From the NCBI GenBank assembly GCA_022820625.1, contig JAJEFE010000011.1, forward strand, positions 846 through 64,845: a stretch of 64,000 bases of DNA. The letters run 5' to 3'. This DNA is from Gammaproteobacteria bacterium (GTDB taxonomy: Bacteria; Pseudomonadota; Gammaproteobacteria; Steroidobacterales; Rariloculaceae). Shown piece by piece: positions 38,190 to 61,154 of the stretch. Both the position numbers and the translations under genes were made by a program. Position 1 is the stretch's first letter, and every line of letters starts with the position of its first letter. Under the pieces are notes generated by a model, which was not told the DNA's origin, made no database searches, and was given only the letters and a program-made list of their open reading frames with translations.

Positions 38190-38624
38190 TCATTCTTCCA
38201 GGAATATGGTCTGAACCGGACCCATGCCCCTGATTTCAACGATCACTTCCTCGTCCTTCGCGCCATCGTAGTGAACCGCGCCAGCCGGGTGCATCATGTA
38301 GCTGCCGGGGCCCAGTGGCACGGTATTGTCACGGTCGCCGCTGGCGTCGGTGCCGGTATGCCAGACGCCGGAAATCACCGTGATGAAACGGTCCTGATCG
38401 TGGTAGTGAGGCGCGGAAAAGGCTCCCGGCGTGAACTTGTTGCGCATGATGTAGAGCCCTTCGGCCTGCGAGTCGCCGTGCAGGTAGACGAACTCGGAGC
38501 CTCCGGGCCGTACGGTCCACTCCAGTTCCTCCGGGTTGATGCGCACGAAACTCTCGCTGGAATCCTGCGCCACCAGGAGCGGCGTCAGCGCCAGAGCCGT
38601 TATGGCGGTCAACAATCTTGTCAT
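38190..38624 (-). CDS. Secreted cupin-domain protein
   Basis: Signal peptide. PHYHDQDRF...PAGAVH metal-site pattern. ATG 38624 with GGAGGAG SD. Starts 24 nt after the HHS-protein stop. Confidence 0.7.
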   Translation of the reverse strand: MTRLLTAITALALTPLLVAQDSSESFVRINPEELEWTVRPGGSEFVYLHGDSQAEGLYIMRNKFTPGAFSAPHYHDQDRFITVISGVWHTGTDASGDRDNTVPLGPGSYMMHPAGAVHYDGAKDEEVIVEIRGMGPVQTIFLEE

Positions 38625-47881: not shown

Positions 47882-48247
47882 ATGAACATGCGCGCTGGTT
47901 GGACGCTTTGGCTGGACTGCCTCATCGTGGCGGGTGTCTGGCTCATTTTCGATCTGGTCCTGCGCGATCCATGGACGGTCCTGTTTGTCGTCATTGCGAT
48001 GGGCTCGGATTTCCTGGTACGAAACGCCACCGGCGGTGCGTTCATGGATGCCAACGCTCCGGTCGGCACCGCTGCACGCGTTCTGGTATGTGTTGCGCTC
48101 TATGCCGGTCCGGCCATCGTCTTGCGATGGTTCAGTGCCAAAGTGCTCAGTGAACCCTATTTTGTCCTGGTGACGGCCGGATGGCTGGTTTTCTACGTGG
48201 GCGCGTTGACGGTTCTGTTCCCGCCGCGCCTGCCGGGGCTGGGTTAG
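47882..48247 (+). CDS. Small integral membrane protein, unknown function
   Basis: ~121 aa, four hydrophobic helices. No recognisable family. Confidence 0.4.
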   Translation: MNMRAGWTLWLDCLIVAGVWLIFDLVLRDPWTVLFVVIAMGSDFLVRNATGGAFMDANAPVGTAARVLVCVALYAGPAIVLRWFSAKVLSEPYFVLVTAGWLVFYVGALTVLFPPRLPGLG

Positions 48248-48270
48248 TTTCGGATCCGTTCCGGTTGGTT

Positions 48271-49719
48271 TTAGGGCTCGGCTTCGCGCGACTGGCGCGA
48301 GGCGATGATCCCCATCGCGGCGCTCTCGCCCGATTCCATGGCGCCCTCCATGCCGCGGTTGGTCTGGGCCAGGTGCTCGCCGCAGAATCGGACCCGGCCG
48401 TGGGGTGCGCCCATCGCGGCGGCGAAGCGGGTGATCTGTCCAGGACGGAAATAGGCCCATGCGCCGCGGGCGAAGGGATCCGCTCCCCAGCTTTGCCGCC
48501 CGATGAACTCCAATTGCCCCCGTGCGGCCGGACGCACGGCTTCAATTTCAGCAATGACCCGGGCACCGGCCGCTTCGGGCGGCAGCGCATCAAGCCGCGC
48601 CGCGTTTCGGCCCATCACCCAGGCCGAGAATCCTGTGATTTCCCCGGGATCGCTGCCGTTGCGTATCGCGGAAAACATGCCGGTCGCGGTATCCGTATAC
48701 AGACTAGGGGCGACTTCGTCCGCTTCCCAAAATTCAGAGTTGTGAGCGAAGTACAATTGGGTCATGGACTGAGAGGGCAGGCTTGCGACGGCTTCCCGCT
48801 GGGAACCGGCCAGGGGCGGGTCGAACGCGATACCACGAAGAACCGTAAAGGGCAGGGCGCACACTGCGTAGGCAGCCCTGAATTCGGTGCCGTCTGCGCA
48901 GCCTACGGTGACCATCCTGCCGTCGTCTTCGATCCGCCTGACCGCACGACCGAAATGCACCGGACGGTCCAGCGACTCGGCCATCGCCTCGGGAATTCGC
49001 TGTACGCCGTCTGCGGCCGTAAAGCCCCTTGCACCCGTAGACGAGGTCGTCGAGGACCGTGACCGAAGCGACTTGCCAACTGACCTGTCTGCCGCCGGTT
49101 CAGACGAGACCGCCTGCGCCCTGGAGAACGCCGCGCGGAACAACAGTTGGAGCGCCGAAATGTCGTGGGCGTCCTCTCCATAACTGACATTCATTCCGTA
49201 ACCAAGCCGAATTGTCTGGTCATTCAGCCCAAGCCCGCGCATCCATTCATACATTGGGACGTCGTGCACGGCCTGCTCGGGGTCCAGCCAGTTCTGCGGT
49301 TCCTTGAGCGGGTTCTCCCGGGCGGTCAGCATCCGGCTGAAGGTCCAGGGCATCAGCGCCCTGTACGGGTCCGGAAACGGGTTGGCGGGGTGAGCCGGCC
49401 ACTCGGACTGGCGAATGATCGCGCCGTCGAGCGCCAGGTCCTGCTCCCTGAAAAACTTCAGCGAGGGCGTGACGTCGATGAGCCTGACGTCGTGGCGCGC
49501 GGCTGCAGCGATCATGCGCCCGTACGCCGCGCCGATGTAGGTGCCGCCGGCTTCCAGGTTGCCGCCGAGTTCGCGCATCGACCGCACCCGTCCGCCCACT
49601 CGATCCTGAGCCTCGACAACCCGCACGTCGACGCCGGCATCCTCAAGGTGAACGGCGGCGTTGAGTCCCGCCAGGCCCGCGCCGATCACCACCGCCTCGC
49701 AGCGATGAATTTTCGTCAC
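48271..49719 (-). CDS. FAD-dependent amine-oxidase-superfamily oxidoreductase; candidate coproporphyrinogen III oxidase (CgoX/HemY role)
   Basis: VVIGAGLAGL...VVEAQDRVGGR dinucleotide-binding motif. GTG start overlaps the hemH stop as GTGA (49716-49719). Role inferred from position only. Sequence looks equally like monoamine-oxidase-type enzymes. Confidence 0.55.
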   Translation of the reverse strand: MTKIHRCEAVVIGAGLAGLNAAVHLEDAGVDVRVVEAQDRVGGRVRSMRELGGNLEAGGTYIGAAYGRMIAAAARHDVRLIDVTPSLKFFREQDLALDGAIIRQSEWPAHPANPFPDPYRALMPWTFSRMLTARENPLKEPQNWLDPEQAVHDVPMYEWMRGLGLNDQTIRLGYGMNVSYGEDAHDISALQLLFRAAFSRAQAVSSEPAADRSVGKSLRSRSSTTSSTGARGFTAADGVQRIPEAMAESLDRPVHFGRAVRRIEDDGRMVTVGCADGTEFRAAYAVCALPFTVLRGIAFDPPLAGSQREAVASLPSQSMTQLYFAHNSEFWEADEVAPSLYTDTATGMFSAIRNGSDPGEITGFSAWVMGRNAARLDALPPEAAGARVIAEIEAVRPAARGQLEFIGRQSWGADPFARGAWAYFRPGQITRFAAAMGAPHGRVRFCGEHLAQTNRGMEGAMESGESAAMGIIASRQSREAEP

Positions 49720-50777
49720 GTCAACTCCACTCCGCAGAGCGCGTCAACGGGCTCGCCGGGCCGGCCGGAGAGGCAGCAGTCGACGGGGCAGAAGTCATGA
49801 TTGGGCCCAAGGCTGCCCAGCGCCGGACGCACCGGATCGACCGTCATTCGCTCGACAATCAGGTCGCGCACCATACGCACGTAGGCGGGATGGGTACCCA
49901 CCGTGCCGGCGCGAACCATGTTGAGTCCGAGTTCGTCTGCTTTTTCTGCAGCTTCCACGTCCAGGTCCAGAACCACTTCCATGTGATCGCAGACGAAGCC
50001 TATGGGTGCGACGACCACGTCGGCGTGGCCTGCCGCATGCACGGATTCCAACGCCTCGCAGATGTCTGGCCCGAGCCACGGTTCGCCGTAGGATGCGTTC
50101 TGACTCTGGTACACCAGTTCCCACCGCGCGGCGCCGGCCATCTCCGCGGTAAGGGAACAAGCCTCGCGCAACTGGGCGACGTAGTCGCACGCCCCGGCCA
50201 TCGAATGGGGCAGGCTGTGGGCGGTGAACAGCAGCGCCGGTTGCGGCTTTGTCGTCGGTAGGCGCGAGAACGCATCACGGAGCCGGTCCGCCATCGCTTC
50301 GATGAACCCGGGGTGGTTGTATCCGAGCCGCAGCTTGTCAATGTGGGGGGCACCGTCAAGGCCATCCACCGCAGCGTAGAGATCTTCGCGGTACTTGCGG
50401 CAGCCGCTGTAGGAACTGAAGGTGCTGGTGACGTAGGCGATGGCACGGGTGACGCCGTCTTCGGTCATCCGGGCCAGCGTATCGTCCAGCATGGGGTGCC
50501 AGTTTCGATTGCCCCAGTACACCGGTAGCCTGGGTCCGGAGTTATCCAGTTCACGCTCCAGTGCCGAGATGAATTCGCGCGTGTGCCGATTGATGGGGCT
50601 GACGCCGCCGAAGCGGTGATAGCGCTGGGCGATGCGGGTCTTGACGGGGGGCGGTACGCGCAGGCCGGCGAGGACGTTGTCCAGGAAGGGCATGACGTCG
50701 TCGGGGCCTTCGGGGCCGCCGAAGGAGACGATCAGGATGGCGTCGTAGTTCCTTGCGTCGTTATCGAAGAGGGTCAT
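49716..50777 (-). CDS. hemH: Ferrochelatase (actinobacterial/coproporphyrin type with Cys-rich C-terminus)
   Basis: ILIVSFGGPEGP, RFGGVSPIN, SSYSGCRKYRED. C-terminal FCPVDCC...LCG cysteine cluster. Confidence 0.85.
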   Translation of the reverse strand: MTLFDNDARNYDAILIVSFGGPEGPDDVMPFLDNVLAGLRVPPPVKTRIAQRYHRFGGVSPINRHTREFISALERELDNSGPRLPVYWGNRNWHPMLDDTLARMTEDGVTRAIAYVTSTFSSYSGCRKYREDLYAAVDGLDGAPHIDKLRLGYNHPGFIEAMADRLRDAFSRLPTTKPQPALLFTAHSLPHSMAGACDYVAQLREACSLTAEMAGAARWELVYQSQNASYGEPWLGPDICEALESVHAAGHADVVVAPIGFVCDHMEVVLDLDVEAAEKADELGLNMVRAGTVGTHPAYVRMVRDLIVERMTVDPVRPALGSLGPNHDFCPVDCCLSGRPGEPVDALCGVELT

Positions 50778-50807
50778 GGCTCAGTGGCGCCAGTAGTCGG
50801 CGTCGTC

Positions 50808-50944
50808 GGGTGCGTGTGTAGGGCTCTCGCACGCTAAACCTCGCCCGCCATCCCTGGCGGGCTCGGATCGGGTCGCGGCGCTCCTGGCCATCCATGGCCC
50901 CGCGCCGCTCCCACGACGCGTGCGAGAGCCCTCCACACGCACCC
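50808..50944. repeat. 137-bp highly structured inverted-repeat element in the hemQ-hemH spacer
   Basis: Arms 50810-50834 and 50918-50942 pair at 24 of 25 positions (extendable by 2 bp). They enclose an 8-bp/4-nt hairpin (50843-50862) and a 5-bp/4-nt hairpin (50886-50899). Confidence 0.8.
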
Positions 50945-50997
50945 TGGGAGCTGGGAATGGGGAGGCGGGTATGAAGATGGGGTATTGGGGGCATGGA

Positions 50998-51723
50998 TCA
51001 AGGGTTGCTGCTTTGCCAGACGGTGCGGCCTACGAAGAAGGGGCCCAGGCTGTCGAGGTACTGGGAGGTTTGTTCGGTCTTGCGCATTTCCTGGACGACT
51101 GCGGAGAGCGGGAACAGGTTTGGCCCGAGGAGGCCGATGACGAAGTCGTTGTCGTGCTTGTCGAGGCCGTGGCAGGCCAGGCGGACGTCCGCGGCGAGTC
51201 CGGCAACGCCGTACCGGCGGCCGATGGAGCCGTGTTCGGCGAGGATCTGGCGCTGCTTGTCCTGGGGCAGGACGTAGAAGCTCTTGGAACGCTGGAGGGG
51301 GTACCAGACGGCCCAGGTGAACGACGGGTTGAGGATCTTGGATCGCGGTTTCACCAGCAAAGTGTCCTCGAGGTCCGGTTCGTAGCCGATGGAGTAGGTG
51401 CGGCCCAGCATGTCGAACTCGCCCTTGTGGTTCATGCCGGTGAAGGGCGGTCGGTTGAAGGTGTCGCGCAGCGTCGTCGCGAAGAATTCCGGGTCTTCGG
51501 TCATCGCCATGACGCCGATGCCCGTGGGATCGTTGGTGTCGACGTACATTGCGCCCTCCACGCCGGCTTCGGCGAGGGCTTGGGCGGTGTCCTGCCCGGA
51601 CTCGCAGCCATTGAACGCGGTGAACTTCATGAACAGTCGGCGATCCAGCGAGATCGGTTGGCCCTTGAGCGTTCCCTTCTCGCTCAGATCCACGGAAATC
51701 GCCTCTCGTGCGGGTTCGGTCAC
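50998..51723 (-). CDS. hemQ: Chlorite-dismutase-family protein, probable coproheme decarboxylase
   Basis: ~241 aa with a Cld/HemQ-like pattern (WAVWYPL, ILAEHG...). GTG start overlaps the hemE stop (GTGA 51720-51723). Confidence 0.7.
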   Translation of the reverse strand: MTEPAREAISVDLSEKGTLKGQPISLDRRLFMKFTAFNGCESGQDTAQALAEAGVEGAMYVDTNDPTGIGVMAMTEDPEFFATTLRDTFNRPPFTGMNHKGEFDMLGRTYSIGYEPDLEDTLLVKPRSKILNPSFTWAVWYPLQRSKSFYVLPQDKQRQILAEHGSIGRRYGVAGLAADVRLACHGLDKHDNDFVIGLLGPNLFPLSAVVQEMRKTEQTSQYLDSLGPFFVGRTVWQSSNP

Positions 51724-52742
51724 GCTGATCGCTCCTCGTGGACGGCGTCGACCAGGGCGGCGACGCTTTCAAGTGGGGTTTGCGGCAGGATGCCATGGCC
51801 GAGGTTCACGATGTGGCCTTCGGGGCTGACCCGTTGCAACAGGGCAGACGCCGCGGCACGGGTGGGAGCGGCGCCGCCAAGGAGTACGGCCGGATCGATA
51901 TTGCCCTGCACGGCTCGTGCCGGATAGCGTCGTTGTACGTCGGCGATGTCCACCCGCCAGTCCACCGCCAGCACCTCGGCAGGAAGGTTGGCGTAGGCGT
52001 CCAGGAGGTGGGGCGCGTTCTGGAGGAAGAGGATTCTCGGCACGCCGGCCTCGCCCACGGTCTCGAGCAGCATTTCCAGGTGAGGGCGAATGAGCCGTTC
52101 CCAATCGGCCAGCGACAGCAGACCGGCCCAGGAATCGAACACCTGCACGGCGTCGGCGCCGGCGCGTGCCTGACCGATCAGGTAGGTGGCCATGGCCTCG
52201 GCGAGCTTGCCCAGCAGGGCTTGCAGCAGTTTCGGTTCGGAGGCGGCGAACGTTCGCAGTCTCGGGAAGTCTTTCCTGCCACGGCCCTCGACGAGGTAGG
52301 CGGCCAGCGTCCAGGGTGCGCCGCAGAAACCCAGCAGCGCCGTTTCGGCCGGGAGGGCGTCACGGGTCTGTCGAAGCGCGGCGAGCACTTCGGGGCCGAG
52401 CCTGTCGGGATCGGGCGACGTCAGCGCATCCACGCCGGCCCTGTCGCGGATGGGCTTTTCCACCACCGGGCCCGGGTCGAAATCGAATTCAACGCCCAGC
52501 GCCGGCAGGGGGCTCATGATGTCGGCGAAAACGATGGCCGCATCGAACGGGAAGCGGGCCATCGGCATCAGCGTCACCCGGGCAGCCAGTTCCGGGGACT
52601 GGGCCACGGCCTTGAACGGATAGGACCGGCGCAGTTCGCGGTATTCGGGCAGGTAGCGGCCGGCCTGGCGCATGATCCAGAGCGGACGCCGCTCGACGGC
52701 CTCGCCGCGTATGGCCTTCAGCAGCAGGCGTTCGTCGGTCAC
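51720..52742 (-). CDS. hemE: Uroporphyrinogen decarboxylase
   Basis: PLWIMRQAGRYLPEYR signature. GTG 52742 overlaps the response-regulator stop (GTGA). Confidence 0.9.
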   Translation of the reverse strand: MTDERLLLKAIRGEAVERRPLWIMRQAGRYLPEYRELRRSYPFKAVAQSPELAARVTLMPMARFPFDAAIVFADIMSPLPALGVEFDFDPGPVVEKPIRDRAGVDALTSPDPDRLGPEVLAALRQTRDALPAETALLGFCGAPWTLAAYLVEGRGRKDFPRLRTFAASEPKLLQALLGKLAEAMATYLIGQARAGADAVQVFDSWAGLLSLADWERLIRPHLEMLLETVGEAGVPRILFLQNAPHLLDAYANLPAEVLAVDWRVDIADVQRRYPARAVQGNIDPAVLLGGAAPTRAAASALLQRVSPEGHIVNLGHGILPQTPLESVAALVDAVHEERSA

Positions 52743-53458
52743 TGGGAACGCTCCGCTTCCTGGGTAAACCGGTACCCGACGCCACGCACGGTATGAAAGT
52801 GCTCGGGCATCTCGGGATTGCGCTCGAAACGCCTGCGCAGCCGCACGATGAAGTTGTCTATGGTGCGCGTCGAGGGGTACACCTCGTAACCCCAGACCCG
52901 GTCCAGGATGTCTTCCCGCGGCACGATCGCGCCGGCCTGTTCGGCCAGGAACTTCAGGATCATGGCTTCCTTGTGGGTCAGCGTGTGCTCGCCGCCGTCC
53001 CATGCCGTGGCGTGATACGTCAGAAAGTCGATGGTGTTGCCGTTGAAGCTGAGCGTCTGCCCGGCCAGCATGTACCAGTGGCTGCGGCGCAGGATGGCGG
53101 CGACCCGCAGCAGCAGTTCCTTGAGATGAAACGGCTTGGCGAGGTAATCGTCCCCGCCCGCTTCAAGTCCGCGAATCCGGTCTTCCGGGGCGCCCTTGAC
53201 GGTCAGGAACAGCACCGGCGTGTGCAGGCCGTTGCGGCGCAGTTCCTCGCAGGTCCTGAGCCCATCCATCTTCGGCATCATCACGTCCAGCAGGATCAGG
53301 TCGAAGGGCTGCGCAAGCGCCTTGCGCAAACCTTCCTCTCCGTCGTGGGCCACTTCCGCAGAATAGCCCTCCGACTGGAGGATTTCGCACACGCCGTCGG
53401 CCAGGTGCTCCTCGTCGTCCACCACGAGGATCCGGGCCGGATTGGCCGTTGCATTCAT
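52739..53458 (-). CDS. OmpR/PhoB-family response regulator
   Basis: Receiver (ILVVDDE, LILLDVMMPKMDG, LAKPF) plus winged helix (TVRGVGYRF). ATG overlaps the kinase stop (ATGA 53455-53458). Confidence 0.9.
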   Translation of the reverse strand: MNATANPARILVVDDEEHLADGVCEILQSEGYSAEVAHDGEEGLRKALAQPFDLILLDVMMPKMDGLRTCEELRRNGLHTPVLFLTVKGAPEDRIRGLEAGGDDYLAKPFHLKELLLRVAAILRRSHWYMLAGQTLSFNGNTIDFLTYHATAWDGGEHTLTHKEAMILKFLAEQAGAIVPREDILDRVWGYEVYPSTRTIDNFIVRLRRRFERNPEMPEHFHTVRGVGYRFTQEAERSQ

Positions 53459-54543
53459 GCGGGCGAACTCGCAGCCGGCCACTCGACGGTGACGGTCGCA
53501 CCGAGCCCCGGACCTTCGCTCGCGGCACTCACGCGTGCGCCGGAGATTTCCGCGAGGCCCCGGACCAGGTATAGCCCCAGGCCGGTACCCGAGGTGGACC
53601 GGCGCATTTCATCACCGAGGCGATAGAACTTCTCGAAAATCATGGCGGCGTCATCGGGAGCAAAGCCGCTGCCGTCATCGCGTACATTGATTCGGACGAC
53701 ACCGTCGTTCGCTCGTGCGTCGATCCAGACGTTCCGCCCCTGGCCGGCAACACACGCCTTGACGGCATTGTCCAGCAGGTTTCGCAGCACCGTTTCGATG
53801 GCGACGGGATCGGCCTCGATTCGCAATTCGTCAGGGACATCGTCGTGGATTTCGATACCGTGGGAGCGGGCGGTTTCCTGGTATCGGGCCACGCCCGAGG
53901 TTACCGCGTTGCTCAGGGTGAGCGCCTCTCCCTTCAGTTCCATCCGGCCTTCCTCGAGCCGGGTGGTATCCAGGAGGTTTTCCACCATGCGCAGCAGGCG
54001 CTCGCCGTCTTCCAGCATCCGCCGGGCCAGCCGTTCGGTGTGGTCGTGGTCCGGCCGTCTGATCAACGTTTCGGCGGCCAGTCGAATACTGGCCAGCGGA
54101 CTCTTCAATTCGTGGGAGACGGCCGCGAGGAAGTTCTGCTGGCGCTTTCTGAGCTGTGCGTCGTGCCGGATGGTTCGCGTCAGCACGGTCATGCCCCCGA
54201 TAAGGACGAGCAGAAAGAAACCGCCCTCCCACGTATAGCGGTTGATGCGCGAGTCTGCATCCGCCACAAGCGCCTCCACGGATTCCGGACGCACGGTGGC
54301 CGTGCCCAGTTCCGGGTCGATCTGAAGGTGCGGCATCAATTCCGGCAGTTGAGGCGTGGCCTGTGCGAAAGCCGCGGTCACCGCAAGCGCATCGGCTTCG
54401 TAAAGCGCCGTGACCCGGTCCCGCTCCTGGCGCGCGAGGCTTCTCTGGTCGGCGACCCACCAGGCCACTTGTGCGGTGGATATGGCAAGCAGCGCGAGGA
54501 AACCAAGCTGCAGCGCCTTGCTGGGATCGCGCTTTAGTATCAT
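53455..54543 (-). CDS. Sensor histidine kinase (two TM helices, ~95-aa external loop, HisKA + HATPase_c, no HAMP/PAS seen)
   Basis: H-box FLAAVSHELKSPL, N-box LLDNAVKA, DDGSGF, GTGLGL. ATG overlaps the hemL stop (ATGA 54540-54543). Confidence 0.9.
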   Translation of the reverse strand: MILKRDPSKALQLGFLALLAISTAQVAWWVADQRSLARQERDRVTALYEADALAVTAAFAQATPQLPELMPHLQIDPELGTATVRPESVEALVADADSRINRYTWEGGFFLLVLIGGMTVLTRTIRHDAQLRKRQQNFLAAVSHELKSPLASIRLAAETLIRRPDHDHTERLARRMLEDGERLLRMVENLLDTTRLEEGRMELKGEALTLSNAVTSGVARYQETARSHGIEIHDDVPDELRIEADPVAIETVLRNLLDNAVKACVAGQGRNVWIDARANDGVVRINVRDDGSGFAPDDAAMIFEKFYRLGDEMRRSTSGTGLGLYLVRGLAEISGARVSAASEGPGLGATVTVEWPAASSPA

Positions 54544-55895
54544 GAGTCGCTCCCCTCGGGTTCGTTGCCTGCCCGGTCCGTCGAAGCGCTTTCGGAATTC
54601 AGGTTGTCCAGGACTTCCCCAAGAGCATCCGCGAGACGGTCGATATGTTCGGGAGTGTGGGCCAGCGACAGGAAACCGACTTCATAGGCGGACGGCGCCA
54701 GCGCGATTCCGCGTTCCAGGAGGCCGTGAAACACGTCGCGGTAGATGCGTGCGGCATCCGGGTGGATCGCCTCTGCCGAGGCCGGCGCCGCGGTCGATCC
54801 CCACGCGATCCAGAAGATCGAACCGATCCGCACCACGGCCGCCGGAACGCCCGATCGGTTCAGGACGCTTCCGAGACGCTGTTTCAGGTATTGACCGAGC
54901 TCTTCCAGGCCCTGCCAGCAGTCGTAGCGCCGCAGGTACTTGAGCGTCGTCAGGCCCGCCGTCATGGCCACGGGGTTTCCCGACAGGGTGCCGGCCTGAT
55001 AGACGCCACCGGTCGGTGCAAGGTGCCGCATGATGTCTCGTGGTCCACCGAATGCGCCCACCGGCATGCCTCCGCCGATCACCTTGCCGAATGTGGCGAG
55101 ATCCGGTTGTACGCCATAGAGCGCGGCCGCACCGCCCGGACCCAGGCGAAAACCGGATATGACCTCGTCGAAGATCAACAGCGCCCCATGGCGCGTGCAG
55201 AGTTCGCGCAAGGTGGCGAGGAACCTGGGGCGCTGGAGGAGCAGGCCGTTGTTCGCGGGCACGGGCTCGATGATGGCCGCGGCGACGCGATCGCCTTCCC
55301 GGTCGAAGAGCGCAGTCAACGCGTCGTCGTCATCGAGTGGCAGCACGCGCGTCAGCGACGCGATCGGTTCGGGCACACCCAGCGACGATGGGGCGCCGAA
55401 TGTCGCAAGTCCCGACCCGGCCGCCACCAGCAGGTGGTCCACGTGACCGTGATAGCAGCCGGAAAACTTGACGATAATGTCGCGCTCAGTGGCGCCCCGG
55501 GCCAGGCGTACGGCGCTCATCACGGCTTCGGTGCCGGAGGATACGAAACGGATCTGTTCGATACCCGGATAGCCGGCGACAACCTCCGCGGCCAATTCGA
55601 TTTCCACCGCGGATGGTGCGCCGAAGGACGTGCCGCGTTTCAATGAGTTGGCCACGGCCTTGACCACGTGCCGGTTGGCGTGGCCCAAAATCAGCGGACC
55701 CCACGAACCGACAAAGTCCAGGTACCTGTTGCCGTCCACATCCCATACGTGGGCTCCGTCACCCTTCTGAATGACGGGCGGCGTGCCCCCGACGCTCCTG
55801 AACGCCCGTACCGGGGAACTCACCCCGCCCGGCAGTACCTCGAGCGCCCGGTCAAACCATTGCGTTGATTGCGTACCGGTGCGTTCCTCGCTCAC
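54540..55895 (-). CDS. hemL: Glutamate-1-semialdehyde 2,1-aminomutase
   Basis: LPGGVSSPVRAF, GSWGPLILGH, SGTEA. GTG start overlaps the hemB stop (GTGA 55892-55895). Confidence 0.9.
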   Translation of the reverse strand: MSEERTGTQSTQWFDRALEVLPGGVSSPVRAFRSVGGTPPVIQKGDGAHVWDVDGNRYLDFVGSWGPLILGHANRHVVKAVANSLKRGTSFGAPSAVEIELAAEVVAGYPGIEQIRFVSSGTEAVMSAVRLARGATERDIIVKFSGCYHGHVDHLLVAAGSGLATFGAPSSLGVPEPIASLTRVLPLDDDDALTALFDREGDRVAAAIIEPVPANNGLLLQRPRFLATLRELCTRHGALLIFDEVISGFRLGPGGAAALYGVQPDLATFGKVIGGGMPVGAFGGPRDIMRHLAPTGGVYQAGTLSGNPVAMTAGLTTLKYLRRYDCWQGLEELGQYLKQRLGSVLNRSGVPAAVVRIGSIFWIAWGSTAAPASAEAIHPDAARIYRDVFHGLLERGIALAPSAYEVGFLSLAHTPEHIDRLADALGEVLDNLNSESASTDRAGNEPEGSDS

Positions 55896-56896
55896 AGCCA
55901 GCCTCCCTCGATTGCATCGCGGGCATGATAGGTGATGATCCGGTCGGCGCCGGCGCGGCGCATGGCCATCAGGTTTTCCCGCACGACCTGCGCCTCCTCC
56001 AGCCAGCCGTTGGCCGCCGCCGCCTTGACCGCCGCGTACTCCCCGGACACATTGTATGCGGCCAGGGGCAGGTTGCTGGCGCGGCGCACTGCCCGGATCA
56101 CGTCGAGGTAGGCCAGCGCGGGCTTGACCATCAGCATGTCCGCGCCCTCCTGCTCGTCAAGTTCGGCTTCGCGGACCGCCTCGCGGACATTGCGCGGGTC
56201 CATCTGGTAGCTGCGCCGGTCCCCGAACGACGGTGCGGAGTCCGCCGCGTCGCGAAACGGCCCGTAGTACCCCGAAGCGTACTTGACCGCGTAGGCGAGC
56301 AGGATGACCCGCTCGTGCCCGGCCCCGTCGAGGGCGTCCCGGATGGCGGCGACCCGCCCATCCATCATGTCGGAGGGCGCCACCACGTCGGCGCCGGCTT
56401 CGGCGTGGCTCAGAGCCGTGCGCACCAGCGGGACCAGGGATGCGTCGTTGACCACGCCGCCTTCGTCGACGATCCCGCAGTGGCCGTGATCGGTGTAGGC
56501 ACACAGGCAGACGTCTGTCATGATCACCAGATCGTCGCCGAACTCGGCCTTGAGGCGCCGAACCGCGCGTTGCACCGCCCCGTCGTCCGCCCACGCTGCC
56601 AGGCCGTCGGGCGTCTTGTGCCCTTCGTGGTCGGGATGGCCGAACAGGAGCACCGAACGGATGCCCAGGCCCAGGTCGGCCGCGACCCGGCCGAGCAGGT
56701 TGTCCAGGCCCAGTTCCGCAATGCCGGGCATGGAAGGGATGGGACGTTCGGCCTTTCGTGCGGCCAGCACGAAGTGGGGCACGATGAACTGCGACGGCGC
56801 GATGTGCGTTTCAGCCGCCAGATCGCGTATCGCCTGGTTCCGGCGCAGTCGTCGGGGGCGTACCCGCCCCGGCACGGTTACGGTCGTTTCGCTCAT
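55892..56896 (-). CDS. hemB: Porphobilinogen synthase (Zn-type)
   Basis: RPRRLR, DVCLCAYTDHGHCG Cys-rich metal site. ATG overlaps the hemD stop (ATGA 56893-56896). Confidence 0.9.
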   Translation of the reverse strand: MSETTVTVPGRVRPRRLRRNQAIRDLAAETHIAPSQFIVPHFVLAARKAERPIPSMPGIAELGLDNLLGRVAADLGLGIRSVLLFGHPDHEGHKTPDGLAAWADDGAVQRAVRRLKAEFGDDLVIMTDVCLCAYTDHGHCGIVDEGGVVNDASLVPLVRTALSHAEAGADVVAPSDMMDGRVAAIRDALDGAGHERVILLAYAVKYASGYYGPFRDAADSAPSFGDRRSYQMDPRNVREAVREAELDEQEGADMLMVKPALAYLDVIRAVRRASNLPLAAYNVSGEYAAVKAAAANGWLEEAQVVRENLMAMRRAGADRIITYHARDAIEGGWL

Positions 56897-57657
56897 TGCA
56901 TGGCCTCCATCAGTCCCTCCAGACTGGGTCTCGCCGCCTCCGCGGTCACGGTCAGTCCGGCGGCATGGGCCGCCCGGGTGGTGGAAGGACCGATCGTGAA
57001 TATCTCCGCCTCTGCGTCAAGTTCAAGCCGGTTCACCAGACCCGTCACCGCGGAGGGGCTTGCCAGAAGGATTTTATCCGCACCGAGTTCGGAGAGCGCC
57101 TGTTTTCGAGTCGTCGGCGCGGCCGGTTGCGTGCGGTAGACATTGAGCCGCAGACAGTCGCCTCCGGCCTGCTCCAGGGTTTCCTCCAGGACGTTGCCGG
57201 CGTTCTCCGCCACGGCGATCAGGCACCGGGGCCTGACATGCGGCGGACCGCCGGCCGGATCGGCACGGAGGCGACCCGCCAGTGCCTCGGCCAACGAACT
57301 TGAGGTGCCGCTCGGCGCCACCAGTTCAACCTGCCCGGGCAGCGAGGCTGCCGCGGCCGCTGTCGCCGGCCCCACCGTTGCTATAAGAGTTGCTGCCATT
57401 GCTTCCTTGTCCGGCGGACTCCAGTCAATGGTGTCGATCATCTGGCGCAAGGCTTCGGCTCCGCGTCGGGACGTCAACACAAGCCAATCGGTCTCGGGCA
57501 GCGCCTCGGCCAGCCGCGCCCTGACGTTCGGCTCGCGGATGGGATGGCACTCGATGCATGGCAGCATCAGCGGTACGGCGCCAGCGTCCGCCAGCCGCGA
57601 CGCCCAGGCGGCGCAGTCTTCGGCGGCGCGCGTGACAAGCACTCGCTGGCCCGTCAT
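56893..57657 (-). CDS. hemD: Uroporphyrinogen-III synthase
   Basis: RVLVTRA...WLVLTSRRGAEAL pattern. ATG 57657 chosen because it forms an ATGA overlap with the hemC stop (57654-57657). The track ORF extends to 58020. Confidence 0.75.
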   Translation of the reverse strand: MTGQRVLVTRAAEDCAAWASRLADAGAVPLMLPCIECHPIREPNVRARLAEALPETDWLVLTSRRGAEALRQMIDTIDWSPPDKEAMAATLIATVGPATAAAAASLPGQVELVAPSGTSSSLAEALAGRLRADPAGGPPHVRPRCLIAVAENAGNVLEETLEQAGGDCLRLNVYRTQPAAPTTRKQALSELGADKILLASPSAVTGLVNRLELDAEAEIFTIGPSTTRAAHAAGLTVTAEAARPSLEGLMEAMQ

Positions 57658-58661
57658 CCGGTCCATCGTCGTTCCAGTTCGGCCCATGCCGAGTCCACCA
57701 GCGCCTCGGTGCTCGTCTCCCGCGCGTCCGCCTTGTGCAGCACGCCGTCGTGCTCGAGCCAGGCAATGAGCCTGGCCGTTCCCGGCGACGGCGCACGTAC
57801 GGCAGTGTTCGACGACGCGTGTGCGGTGCCATTGGGCGACGCGATGTCCCCGGTCTGGTGCGCCCGTGATCCGTCTGCGGTGCACCAGGCGCCGAATGCC
57901 AGATCGCAACCGCCTTCCACCCGTGCCAGCAGGCGGCGCTCCGCTGCCACCGCCTGACGGGTCGCTGCGTGGTCGAGAGACTCCAGCAGCTCGCATATGC
58001 CCTCGTCCGCCCGCCGGCACTGGATTGCCAGCGCCCCCTGGGCCGGCGCGGGTACGAAGTCCACCGGCCGCAGTCTGTGGACCTCCAATTCATCCGTGAC
58101 GGGATCGGTGACGCCGTCCAGCGGGCTCCGGCGCAGCCGCTGGATGCCCGCCGCCGCAAGCACCACGCCGTCCAGGTCGGCCCGCAGCCGGTTGATGCGC
58201 GTGGGCACGTTGCCGCGAATGGGCACGATCCTGATATCCGGCCGCAGATGTCTTATCCAGGCCTGGCGCCGCGCCGAAGCCGTTCCCACGCGGGCGCCGC
58301 CGATGATCGGCAACGCCTCCGCCGACGCGTCAGCCGCCGCGCGTGTCATCACCAGTACATCGGCCGGATCGAGCCGCTCCGGCACCGCCCCGATGGTCAG
58401 GTCGTCCGGCGACTGCGTGGGCAGATCCTTGTAGGAATGAATCGCGATGTCCACCTCATTGGCGAGCATGGCCTGCTCGATTTCACGCACAAACACACCC
58501 TGGGGGCCGATGGACCCGAACGAGGTGGCCGTGGAGCGATCGCCGGCGGTCCTGATGATCGTGAGATCGGCATCGTGACCGAGTTTAGAGATTATTCCGG
58601 CGACTCCGGCCGCCTGGGTGCGCGCCAGATGGGATCCCCGTGTTCCGATGCGGAGCTTCAT
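57654..58661 (-). CDS. hemC: Hydroxymethylbilane synthase (porphobilinogen deaminase)
   Basis: MKLRIGTRGSHLARTQA N-terminus. ATG overlaps the hemA stop (ATGA 58658-58661). Confidence 0.9.
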   Translation of the reverse strand: MKLRIGTRGSHLARTQAAGVAGIISKLGHDADLTIIRTAGDRSTATSFGSIGPQGVFVREIEQAMLANEVDIAIHSYKDLPTQSPDDLTIGAVPERLDPADVLVMTRAAADASAEALPIIGGARVGTASARRQAWIRHLRPDIRIVPIRGNVPTRINRLRADLDGVVLAAAGIQRLRRSPLDGVTDPVTDELEVHRLRPVDFVPAPAQGALAIQCRRADEGICELLESLDHAATRQAVAAERRLLARVEGGCDLAFGAWCTADGSRAHQTGDIASPNGTAHASSNTAVRAPSPGTARLIAWLEHDGVLHKADARETSTEALVDSAWAELERRWTG

Positions 58662-60082
58662 CGCGTGGTACCCTGACTGACGGTGCTGCGTCGTTTCGAT
58701 CGAGCGACGGCGTCGTGTCCCGGATCGTCTCGCAGGTCATCCCGCCTCTCATCCCGCCTCGGGGCGCGGTCCAGGGCTTGGCGCAACTCCTCGGCGAACT
58801 TCGGGTCGAGGCCCTCAAGAAAGGCTTCCAGCGAGCCGTCCGGCCCGTGGTGCAGGAGTCCTCTCAGGCCGAGCGTGGGAATATGGGCGAAACGCCGCGC
58901 GAGCACCTCCGCCCAGGTTTCGATGGCCTGCCGTTCCGCGTCCCCGAGTCCCTTGAGGTCCTTCTTCAGCAGCCGACGCACCCCTTCCCGGGCGGTGTGC
59001 CGGTAGCGGTTCTGCAGAGCGCCAAACAGCGGTCCGTAGACTTGTTCGGCAAAGCGATCCCGAAGTCGCGGCAGGGCCTCGTCCACCAGCTCGCGGGCCT
59101 GGGCGGCCTCCAGTAGCCGGGCCTCCCGGTTGATCTGCGCCTCACGGACAATCTCGTCCATGCCGATGCGAGGCAGGCCGAGCTTTCGGCAGGCGCCGCT
59201 GTCGATGTTTTCCGGCACGGCCATGTCGATGAAGAGCGGCGCCTGCCCGGAGGGCGTTTTCGCGGCGATCCGTTCCAGCGCGGGTTCAGCCAGGAGCGGT
59301 TCGGGGGCGCCGGCCGAGCTGAGGACGGCTTCCGCAGCCGGCGGATCGCGCAGAAAATTTTTCAGGCACATGGCTTCGGCAGAGTAGGGTTGCGCGGCCG
59401 CCCGGGCCTTGGCCAGGGTACGGTTGACGAAGATCAGCGGTGTATCCGCGTTGGCCAGCGAGCGGGCCGTGCGTTCGGTCATGGCCGAGACGCCCACGAG
59501 CGCCACGGCTCCGGGCGTTCGCTCGAGCCGCTCCCGGAGCTTCGCCACCGCCACCTCGGCCAGCGATACGCGTCCCTGGCCGAGGCGGGTTGCGCCGCGT
59601 ACCTGTGCCGCGATGCTCAGGGCCTCGTCGAAGAGCAGTTCCAACCGGGGGCCGCTCAACCCAAGTTCGGCCGCAAGATCGCGGCATGCGCGAACCTGCC
59701 CGACGATTTCCACTTCTCCCATCGCGGCGGAATCCAGTCCGGCCGCCACCATGAAGAGGTGTTCGCAGGCGCCCTCGCCCTGCCATGCCTTGAGCGTGCG
59801 TTCCGCCTCGCCGGGCGCGGGGGGACGACCCACGAGGAACTCATGGACCATCGGTCTTATGTCGCTCTGACGCCCATTGTCCGTGGTGGCGTCGATAGTT
59901 CGCGCGAAAATGATCTCGACACGGTTGCAGGTATCCAGGTAGGCAAGTTCCGCAAGACCCGCCTCCCGGGCAAACCCGCGCAGGCGATCATCACGCCCGG
60001 CCTGTGGCAGCGCGAAGCGTGCCAGCGCTTCGCTGCCGTCCTGGCGCCAGGAAATCCCGACGATGCCCAGTTCTTCCAACAC
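58658..60082 (-). CDS. hemA: Glutamyl-tRNA reductase
   Basis: LDTCNRVEI catalytic-Cys motif, NADPH domain, charged C-terminal extension. GTG start. Confidence 0.9.
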   Translation of the reverse strand: MLEELGIVGISWRQDGSEALARFALPQAGRDDRLRGFAREAGLAELAYLDTCNRVEIIFARTIDATTDNGRQSDIRPMVHEFLVGRPPAPGEAERTLKAWQGEGACEHLFMVAAGLDSAAMGEVEIVGQVRACRDLAAELGLSGPRLELLFDEALSIAAQVRGATRLGQGRVSLAEVAVAKLRERLERTPGAVALVGVSAMTERTARSLANADTPLIFVNRTLAKARAAAQPYSAEAMCLKNFLRDPPAAEAVLSSAGAPEPLLAEPALERIAAKTPSGQAPLFIDMAVPENIDSGACRKLGLPRIGMDEIVREAQINREARLLEAAQARELVDEALPRLRDRFAEQVYGPLFGALQNRYRHTAREGVRRLLKKDLKGLGDAERQAIETWAEVLARRFAHIPTLGLRGLLHHGPDGSLEAFLEGLDPKFAEELRQALDRAPRRDERRDDLRDDPGHDAVARSKRRSTVSQGTTR

Positions 60083-60287
60083 GCCGTCAAGGTTAGGGAT
60101 CAGGCCGCTGGAATTGTCACCGGAGTGTCACAGCGAATCGCCGGTTCCCCGTGTCCACGCGGACCTCCCGCCCGCGCCGAGTGCCCTTTCGCTGGAGCCT
60201 TGCGGGTTTTTGCGTACACTGGGACGCGGTACACTAAGGTGGCTGTCCCGCGAAATGACAACCGTATTGAAGAATGGAGGAGACTGC

Positions 60288-61154
60288 GTGAATACCAAAC
60301 TAACCTCAATTGCAGTGGGCGCCCTTGCGCTGGCGTCGATGCCGATGACACTGGCGCAGGATGAACCGTTCAGGGAAATCGTCAACATCACGGGGGATTT
60401 GTATCGGGCCACCAACAACGCCCACCACACCGTGTTCCTGGTGACTGACGAGGGGATCATTCTTACCGATCCCATCGGCACGGATTTTGCGGCCTGGCTG
60501 AAGGGCGAACTGGATGAGCGCTTTGGCGTTCCGGTGAGGTATGTGCTCTACAGTCACTACCATGACGACCACGCCTCGGGCGGGGCGGTCTTCGAGGACA
60601 CCGCTGAATTCGTCGGCCACGAGAACATGCCCGTCAATCTCGCGGCGGAGGAGGGCAACGAAGACTTCGCGGAAGTCCGCGCGCCGGATACGACGTACTC
60701 CGACAGCACCAGCGTGATGCTGGGCGGCAAGACGGTGGAGATGATCCACGCGATGCCGAGTCACAGCAATGATTCATCGATCATCCGCTTCCCCGACGAG
60801 CGGGCCGTCTTCGCGGTGGACTTCGTCAACGTCCAGCGCGTGCCGTTCCAGACCATGTCGGGCTGGGGGCCGGTCACGACCTGGATCGAGGCCAATCGCC
60901 ACCTCCAGTCCACGGTGGACTATGACATCATGGCCCCGGGTCACGGCCCGGTGGGGACCAAGGCCGACGTCGACGACACGACCCGTTACCTTGAGGAGCT
61001 ATTGGCAGCCGTGACGGAGGCGGTCGATGCCGGCATGAGTCTGGAGGAAGCCCAGGCGGCGGTGCTCATGGAGGACTACAGCGGCTGGGCGCAGTACGAC
61101 GCCTGGCGGGCGCTCAACGTTCAGGGAGTCTTCGAGCAGTTGACCGCCGAGTAG
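60288..61154 (+). CDS. Secreted metallo-beta-lactamase-fold hydrolase
   Basis: GTG 60288, 5-6 nt after GGAGGAG. Signal peptide ...MTLA|QD. SHYHDDHASGG motif. Confidence 0.75.
   Translation: MNTKLTSIAVGALALASMPMTLAQDEPFREIVNITGDLYRATNNAHHTVFLVTDEGIILTDPIGTDFAAWLKGELDERFGVPVRYVLYSHYHDDHASGGAVFEDTAEFVGHENMPVNLAAEEGNEDFAEVRAPDTTYSDSTSVMLGGKTVEMIHAMPSHSNDSSIIRFPDERAVFAVDFVNVQRVPFQTMSGWGPVTTWIEANRHLQSTVDYDIMAPGHGPVGTKADVDDTTRYLEELLAAVTEAVDAGMSLEEAQAAVLMEDYSGWAQYDAWRALNVQGVFEQLTAE

Follow-up and report, generated by a model that had tools for sequence, protein, structure and literature searches.

Why are a sensor kinase and its response regulator encoded in the middle of a heme biosynthesis operon? 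The question is raised by a 64,000-nt stretch of contig JAJEFE010000011.1 (positions 846–64,845; the window), which belongs to the 4.56-Mb, 95%-complete genome assembly GCA_022820625.1 of an uncultured, sponge-associated gammaproteobacterium of the family Rariloculaceae. A first-pass annotation of this DNA had placed a two-component system between hemL and hemE, had proposed that it is a direct feedback sensor of the pathway, and had taken heme-linked two-component systems to be separate loci in all other organisms. The last premise falls with Leptospira interrogans, where the hklep/rrlep pair, also named HemKR, sits between hemL and hemE and is transcribed together with both genes (Louvel et al. 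2008, PMC2266917). We conclude that the window pair is probably a HemKR-type two-component system controlling the heme operon in which it sits. The claim to novelty is thereby lost, but feedback on heme synthesis remains the best reading of the pair's role because a conserved candidate regulator site lies at the putative hemA promoter.

All operon coordinates are window positions on the minus strand, and genes were named by Pfam and NCBIfam profiles. Eleven genes form one tightly packed unit in the order hemA-C-D-B-L-HK-RR-hemE-Q-H-Y (HK, histidine kinase; RR, response regulator), which spans 48271–60130 including the candidate regulator site upstream of hemA (hem-box). The HemK-like kinase (53455–54543, 362 aa; Pfam HisKA and HATPase_c) and the HemR-like OmpR/PhoB-type regulator (52739–53458, 239 aa; Pfam Response_reg and Trans_reg_C) are preceded by hemL (glutamate-1-semialdehyde aminomutase, 54540–55895; TIGR00713, 534 bits, above cut-off) and followed by hemE (uroporphyrinogen decarboxylase, 51720–52742; TIGR01464, 369 bits, above cut-off). 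As read from the sequence, and as first described, the hemL stop overlaps the kinase start by 4 nt (ATGA, 54543–54540), the kinase stop the regulator start (ATGA, 53458–53455), and the regulator stop the GTG start of hemE (GTGA, 52742–52739). The regulator most likely starts at ATG 53458, in frame and 24 nt inside the longest open reading frame, and not at that frame's GTG 53482 as had been assumed. The pair is translationally coupled into the heme operon. The overlaps are nevertheless not peculiar to the pair, since 4-nt overlaps also occur at hemA/C, C/D, D/B, B/L, E/Q and H/Y, i.e., at nine of the ten operon junctions in total; the sole junction with a spacer is hemQ-hemH (220 nt). They also give no ground for the fixed stoichiometry with the heme enzymes that had been deduced from them, as overlapping codons indicate coupling, not equal yields.

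The arrangement hemL-HK-RR-hemE is conserved far beyond chance. A full-length kinase orthologue (34–96% identity) was found in 23 of the 24 other genomes of the family, which cover nine genera; the sole miss has a completeness of 64%. In sixteen genomes of sister families within this order (including the unpublished G039), only generic matches to the kinase core were obtained, or no match up to the E-value limit. The kinase follows hemL at all 23 family loci, of which 22 read hemL>HK>RR>hemE and one breaks off behind the kinase at a contig end, and most family junctions retain the overlaps (starts estimated). A scan with one genome per species found 225 relatives, 80 of which were retained as further loci (L031–L110). 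The gene directly before the kinase is hemL in 59 of these, hemA in 18 and another gene in one (two are cut off), and the gene directly after the regulator is hemE in 70 and another gene in four (six are cut off). Orthologous heme operons, which the first-pass annotation had proposed to check, do carry the same insertion. The 18 hemA-adjacent loci read hemA-HK-RR, mostly continued by hemE-Q-H-Y. By the depositors' record titles, from which the lineage names of the further loci are taken, carriers are labeled Gammaproteobacteria, Candidatus Rariloculaceae, Candidatus Azotimanducaceae and Pseudomonadales, together with a few Vicinamibacteria, Acidobacteria and Rhodospirillaceae. The 1.2-Mb, 96%-complete family genome G023 (L024) encodes only five kinase candidates and retains hemL-HK-RR-hemE, with a kinase 34% identical to that of the window. 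Five DNA sequencing runs share at least half of the words of 50700–60300; all are labeled as sponge metagenomes, they come from two studies, and the source sample may be among them. No RNA runs containing this same region were listed.

The hem-box motif TGACA-N6-TGACA was taken from work on Leptospira, in which phosphorylated HemR binds TGACA[N6]TGACA and acts as an activator of the hemA cluster and as a repressor of hmuO (Imelio et al. 2024, PMC11426443). Inspection of the region upstream of hemA for regulator sites, as had been advised, revealed a perfect hem-box, TGACACTCCGGTGACA, at 60115–60130 on the minus strand. It lies 32 nt upstream of the start codon, on the strand of hemA (glutamyl-tRNA reductase, the first gene of the operon, 58658–60082; Pfam GlutR_N, Shikimate_DH and GlutR_dimer), is the sole perfect match in the 64-kb window and is the predicted site of the operon's own regulator. 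Allowing up to two mismatches, the window contains 21 matches versus 35.6 expected, and only the perfect site stands out. With a position weight matrix (PWM) built from related sites, the hemA site is the top match at 30.3 bits, followed by a 22.8-bit match at 38316–38331. The latter lies within a coding frame and was treated as chance, as were the two other perfect boxes of the genome, one at C102:45500, which precedes the ribosome site of a ComEA-like gene by 8 nt, and one at C144:35781, approximately 290 nt from a TctC gene and beside an IS481-type transposase frame.

Conservation of the box was assessed in 64 of 80 related loci that provide at least 120 nt upstream of hemA; the other 16 lack hemA in the locus (n = 13) or have it at the edge (n = 3). 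A perfect box occurs within 300 nt upstream of hemA in 60 of the 64 loci and a one-mismatch box in three (L082, L085, L088), with none in L102. None of 12 control hemA upstream regions, eleven from sister families lacking the kinase orthologue and one belonging to a second, unrelated hemA of genome G013, has a box at up to one mismatch, the best having two to four mismatches. Box, kinase and regulator co-occur across about a hundred genomes. The consensus of the 60 boxes is G-TGACA-CTcCc-G-TGACA-A/C-A/T, in which the ten core bases are fixed by the selection of perfect matches. Immediately ahead of the second repeat, 53 of the 60 have a G, as does one Leptospira box printed in PMC11426443. The start codon follows the box after 31–35 nt in 27 loci, including the window, and after 55–61 nt in 28. 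The upstream neighbor of hemA varies: about 29 of 56 loci have an APH-family gene in the same direction, whereas the closest relatives of the window have a divergent gene there. Because the neighbor changes by lineage while the distances from box to start codon stay fixed, the hem-box is best assigned to hemA and not to the upstream neighbor. In the window, the divergent neighbor is an MBL-fold protein (60288–61154, plus strand) with a likely GTG start at 60288, GGAGGAG ahead of it and a signal-peptide-like N-terminus; the 205-nt intergenic region between this gene and hemA contains the hem-box. At two loci (L057:1011–1160 and L062:1197–1336), a different, A/T-flanked palindromic element lies between hem-box and hemA, and the distance is stretched to 123–133 nt.

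A putative -10-like element, TAACCT (60090–60095, minus strand), follows the box at a distance of 19 nt and precedes the hemA start codon, which would be GTG in the window, by 7 nt, and TAnnnT is found 19–21 nt after the box in 36 of the 60 loci. With the box centered near -40 and no acceptable -35 hexamer at 16–18 nt from the -10-like element, the predicted promoter layout is of the activator-dependent type, which agrees with hemA activation in Leptospira without proving it. In the class of loci with the short distance (31–35 nt), where the -10-like element lies only about 7 nt before the start, transcription would begin at the start codon or right beside it, and the hemA message may be leaderless. 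A simple sigma-70 and terminator scan of 48000–60400 detected nothing above shuffled sequences.

By their conserved residues, kinase and regulator both appear functional. In the kinase, H144 is present together with the N, G1, F and G2 boxes; the regulator combines the receiver residues D14, D15, D58, T86 and K108 with a winged-helix output domain, and its DNA-binding half is nearly invariant across 14 orthologues. The two transmembrane (TM) helices attributed to the kinase were recovered as hydrophobic segments at residues 11–31 (TM1) and 105–125 (TM2), and the enclosed external loop measures approximately 73 aa (residues 32–104) instead of the approximately 95 aa given before. HisKA with H144 and HATPase_c come directly after TM2 (a HATPase_c_2 match is sub-threshold in Pfam), and Pfam finds neither a HAMP nor a PAS domain, as had been noted from the sequence. 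In an AlphaFold2 model of the kinase (17 orthologues, mean pLDDT 79), a helix at 7–61 and a small hairpin at 73–84 are followed by an unbroken helix at 86–162 that spans loop, TM2 and His helix with no HAMP between.

Regional conservation of the kinase, expressed as mean column identity in an alignment of 17 orthologous sequences, is highest in the juxtamembrane segment plus TM2 (residues 100–125, 0.86), followed by the linker to the His helix (0.83), the dimerization and histidine phosphotransfer region (DHp, 0.81), and the N-terminal tail, TM1 and the ATP-binding domain (0.72 each). The external loop is the least conserved region (0.55) and is approximately 35 aa shorter in two genera (L022, L023), which makes it an unlikely sensor. 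At the outer membrane interface, W29, W105, E106, G107, F109 and F110 are invariant and N101 and R102 nearly so; the stretch TRTIRHD on the inner side of TM2 contains an invariant D128 and nearly invariant T122 and T124. The kinase thus probably senses its signal with the membrane helices and the segments flanking them rather than with the external loop. This combination of a conserved membrane part and a variable loop mirrors that of Leptospira. Hklep has two TM segments, a 32-aa periplasmic loop and His98; complementation was kept when the loop was swapped for another sequence, and a construct without the TM segments and the loop gave none (PMC2266917). A profile of the sensor part only (130 positions) matched 262 cluster representatives at E ≤ 0.001 among 1.84 billion, and on this count the sensor part is a discrete family of modest size. 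A protein atlas lookup returned only generic histidine-kinase clusters. One protein of 609 aa (P0059), with 65% identity to the kinase across 96% of its length, bears a receiver domain as well and appears to be a kinase-regulator fusion such as loss of the ATGA overlap would yield.

For a HemKR-type pair acting on its own operon, the following circuit is proposed. The phosphorylated regulator would bind both direct repeats as a tandem dimer centered near -40. As the lack of a usable -35 hexamer suggests, it would activate the operon, driving transcription of all eleven genes, its own included, from one promoter and so forming a positive loop. When a pathway product such as 5-aminolevulinic acid (ALA), a porphyrin or heme builds up, the kinase would go to phosphatase mode, and this switch would close a negative feedback loop as with ALA for Leptospira HemK, which is turned to phosphatase mode via Thr102 by ALA or a metabolite derived from it (PMC11426443).

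The same pair and box could also work in the opposite sense, with the phosphorylated regulator lying over the -35 region and silencing the operon in the presence of the signal, i.e., simple negative autoregulation. A protein bound to a box only 31–35 nt from the start codon, as in 27 of the 60 loci, could block RNA polymerase, and the same box represses hmuO in Leptospira (PMC11426443). We nonetheless consider repression unlikely, as a TAnnnT 19–21 nt after the box with no acceptable -35 at 16–18 nt is an activator-dependent layout, and at the Leptospira hemA phosphorylated HemR activates; L. biflexa mutants grow only with hemin or ALA (PMC2266917). A more distant proposal, that the pair is a passenger trapped by chance that regulates unlinked genes, is barely credible. 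Nothing specific speaks for it beyond the possibility of other targets with degenerate boxes, and it is contradicted by a linkage that holds from 96% down to 34% kinase identity, at 23 of 23 family loci and on the upstream side of 77 of 78 uncut further loci, that persists in the rearranged order hemA-HK-RR-hemE, and that is accompanied by a conserved box at the operon's own promoter.

The remaining alternative concerns PhoB: the box would be a pho box read by PhoB, or the pair would sense phosphate or envelope stress with heme synthesis merely tied in. TGACA-N6-TGACA is the reverse complement of the Escherichia coli pho box core, the half-site TGACA complementing TGTCA with the same 11-bp period, and among named profiles the regulator comes nearest to PhoB and the kinase to PnpS/PhoR. 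However, these matches reach only about half of the required score and no NCBIfam cut-off is attained by either protein (regulator: PhoB NF053854, 180 versus 270 bits, and TIGR02154, 169 versus 296; kinase: PnpS, 154 versus 400 bits as the best equivalog, and TIGR02966, 136 versus 334). Since a true PhoB (348 bits, above cut-off) is encoded on a different contig of the genome and is only 34% identical to the operon regulator, the latter is by these comparisons a separate paralogue. PhoR carries a PAS domain, which the window kinase lacks, and the box is present at 60 of the 64 assessed loci with the embedded pair but in none of the 12 hemA upstream regions without it. We therefore regard control by or through a phosphate system as very improbable.

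Several observations do weigh against a HemKR-type assignment. Judged by the sequence alone, PhoB binding at the hem-box would also be compatible. The genome of 4.56 Mb contains three perfect boxes (one for the reversed control pattern), which is approximately the estimated expectation from base composition, so the hemA site is singled out by position and conservation only. Four places after the phospho-His (H144-E-L-K-S148), the kinase has Ser, as do 16 of the 17 aligned orthologues, with Thr in the remaining one (L024); for phosphatase activity, the HemKR papers give Thr or Asn at this place. Nothing corresponding to the hmuO arm of the Leptospira regulon was seen in the 95%-complete window genome, where neither a PF01126 match nor a second convincing box was found. 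The proposed kinship to Leptospira HemKR is drawn from gene order, architecture and a shared DNA motif. Ten short-loop representatives of the sensor profile, from the 150 of 262 matches listed, carry generic names or those of metagenome-assembled genomes (MAGs) and no Leptospira name. Finally, activation as opposed to repression, the promoter and co-transcription are points that we infer. Further searches touched on the same link: neither Leptospira HemK nor HemR was recognizable among the PDB matches listed for the kinase and regulator queries, and in a tblastn search of plasmid records with hemE, Leptospira was absent both from the organism tally and from the 25 listed records.

The remaining operon genes are as follows. 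Between hemA and hemL lie hemC (porphobilinogen deaminase, 57654–58661; Pfam Porphobil_deam, 3e-64), hemD (uroporphyrinogen-III synthase, 56893–57657; Pfam HEM4, 9e-38), whose ATG at 57657 overlaps the hemC stop (ATGA), and hemB (ALA dehydratase, 55892–56896; Pfam ALAD, 2e-137). Downstream of hemE follow a HemQ/ChdC-like protein of the chlorite-dismutase family (50998–51723; Pfam Chlor_dismutase, 5e-16, in the C-terminal half only; HemQ_actino, 44 bits versus a cut-off of 235), hemH (ferrochelatase, 49716–50777; Pfam Ferrochelatase, 7e-78) and, as the last gene, an amine-oxidase-type flavoprotein in the HemY/CgoX slot (48271–49719; Pfam Amino_oxidase, 4e-60), in which the TIGR00562 match covers the N-terminal FAD motif only (34 bits versus a cut-off of 98). 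HemF, HemN (TIGR00538) and a PF01126 heme oxygenase were not found in the 95%-complete genome. With neither HemF nor HemN detected, the HemQ-like protein, HemH and the flavoprotein of the operon are the only late branch found, which looks coproporphyrin-type in a genome labeled gammaproteobacterial. Where a 2024 review lists diderm phyla with the coproporphyrin route, it names Planctomycetota and Acidobacteria and does not mention Proteobacteria (PMC10991733).

The hemA of the window is 59–87% identical to that of 22 of the 23 family genomes and 35% identical to that of the 1.2-Mb G023; identity to hemA of the sister families is only 25–31%, and G013 has both kinds. In an even sample of the class, a kinase orthologue (E ≤ 1e-50) was found in at least one of 400 scored genomes, namely the window's own, the count being a lower bound as five candidates were scored per genome. 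Around one carrier labeled Vicinamibacteria (Acidobacteria), two of 31 genomes have the orthologue. The divergence of hemA from the sister families, the patchy distribution of the kinase and the type of late branch suggest that the whole unit, including regulator and promoter, was acquired horizontally and that a native hemA was replaced by the foreign operon. More tentatively, and in our view rather doubtful as a whole, the eleven genes might be a self-contained, self-regulating heme cassette, with the complete coproporphyrin-type pathway, a sensor and regulator of its own and one hem-box promoter, that moves between phyla and has taken the place of the native heme genes in one family of gammaproteobacteria; the pair would enable it on arrival in a new host, and W29, N101, R102 and W105-E-G-x-F-F110 would form a membrane pocket that reads porphyrin or heme.

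The hemQ-hemH spacer (50778–50997), which the first-pass annotation had put forward as a further place to look for regulator sites, was rejected as such. It contains no hem-box even at two mismatches and is filled by a palindromic dispersed repeat of approximately 140 nt (50808–50944; predicted hairpin of -122.6 kcal/mol) that is not part of the regulatory system. BLAST of the repeat gave 56 rows, 55 of them away from the spacer's own full-length match, and related copies are spread over some 50 or more genomic positions, of which several are contig ends. In most related loci, hemQ and hemH lie close together (median gap near 14 nt). The repeat may affect stability of the distal transcript or read-through.

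Among known systems, PhoBR is nearest by profile score, and its pho box shares the half-site and the 11-bp period with the hem-box; it differs in that the scores stay below cut-off, the genome has its own PhoB, the kinase lacks PAS and the context is heme and not pst/phoU. HssRS of Staphylococcus aureus, encoded at a locus of its own, responds to external heme by inducing the HrtBA exporter rather than acting on synthesis, and its sensor has a larger external domain and a HAMP domain. A HAMP linker and a separate locus beside an exporter or oxygenase are features common to HssRS, ChrSA and HrrSA; the window kinase has no HAMP, and its locus is the biosynthetic operon. We know of no box or gene order that ChrSA/HrrSA share with the window operon. 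HssRS does resemble the window pair in combining a HisKA kinase with an OmpR-type regulator dedicated to heme, and its signal, which the title of one paper gives as heme in the membrane (PMC11237747), is an analogy for sensing by TM helices. In Corynebacterium, ChrSA/HrrSA likewise provide two-component control of the hemA (GtrR) promoter in an organism with the coproporphyrin pathway, but from separate loci and by repressing hemA in response to heme (PMC10991733). HemX of the Bacillus hemAXCDBL operon is, like the window kinase, a membrane protein and a regulator embedded in the operon of its pathway, in this case an early heme operon, and it lowers HemA levels; unlike the kinase it has no kinase function and no partner regulator, and it acts at the protein level by a route that is described as not known (PMC10991733).

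HemKR of Leptospira (Hklep/Rrlep, LB014–LB015) is closest. Four of the five HemKR features decidable here, namely placement, kinase architecture, regulator type and hem-box, are present, and the fifth, the hmuO arm, was not found. Both pairs lie between hemL and hemE in one unit. Both kinases have two TM helices, no HAMP or PAS, and the His approximately 18–19 residues after TM2; the Leptospira loop is short and replaceable, and the window loop is variable and the least conserved part. Both regulators are of the OmpR/PhoB type with a phospho-acceptor Asp (D53 according to the HemKR papers, D58 in the window), and TGACA-N6-TGACA precedes hemA in both. The differences are the host (a spirochete versus an uncultured gammaproteobacterium by depositor labels), the loop (32 versus approximately 73 aa), the residue at His+4 (Thr versus Ser) and the late branch, which is coproporphyrin-type in the window (HemQ-like protein, HemH and flavoprotein), whereas the Leptospira cluster is named hemACBLENG (PMC11426443). 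In the literature searched, the name HemKR occurs in Leptospira papers only, one of which presents it as a distinct, Leptospira-specific system. The HemKR design now appears as the norm throughout a family of uncultured gammaproteobacteria, of which several are sponge-derived, and, by depositor labels, also in other gammaproteobacterial lineages and a few Acidobacteria, joined here to a different late heme pathway. It offers a case of a regulator traveling with the pathway it controls, a minimal regulon of one box and one operon that should be easily rebuilt in a laboratory host, and, for a sensor whose signal in Leptospira is not yet known, a comparative data set of 262 clusters with a conserved membrane and juxtamembrane motif and a variable, partly deleted loop. 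The window pair is not a new kind of system but probably a further member of the HemKR kind, outside Leptospira.

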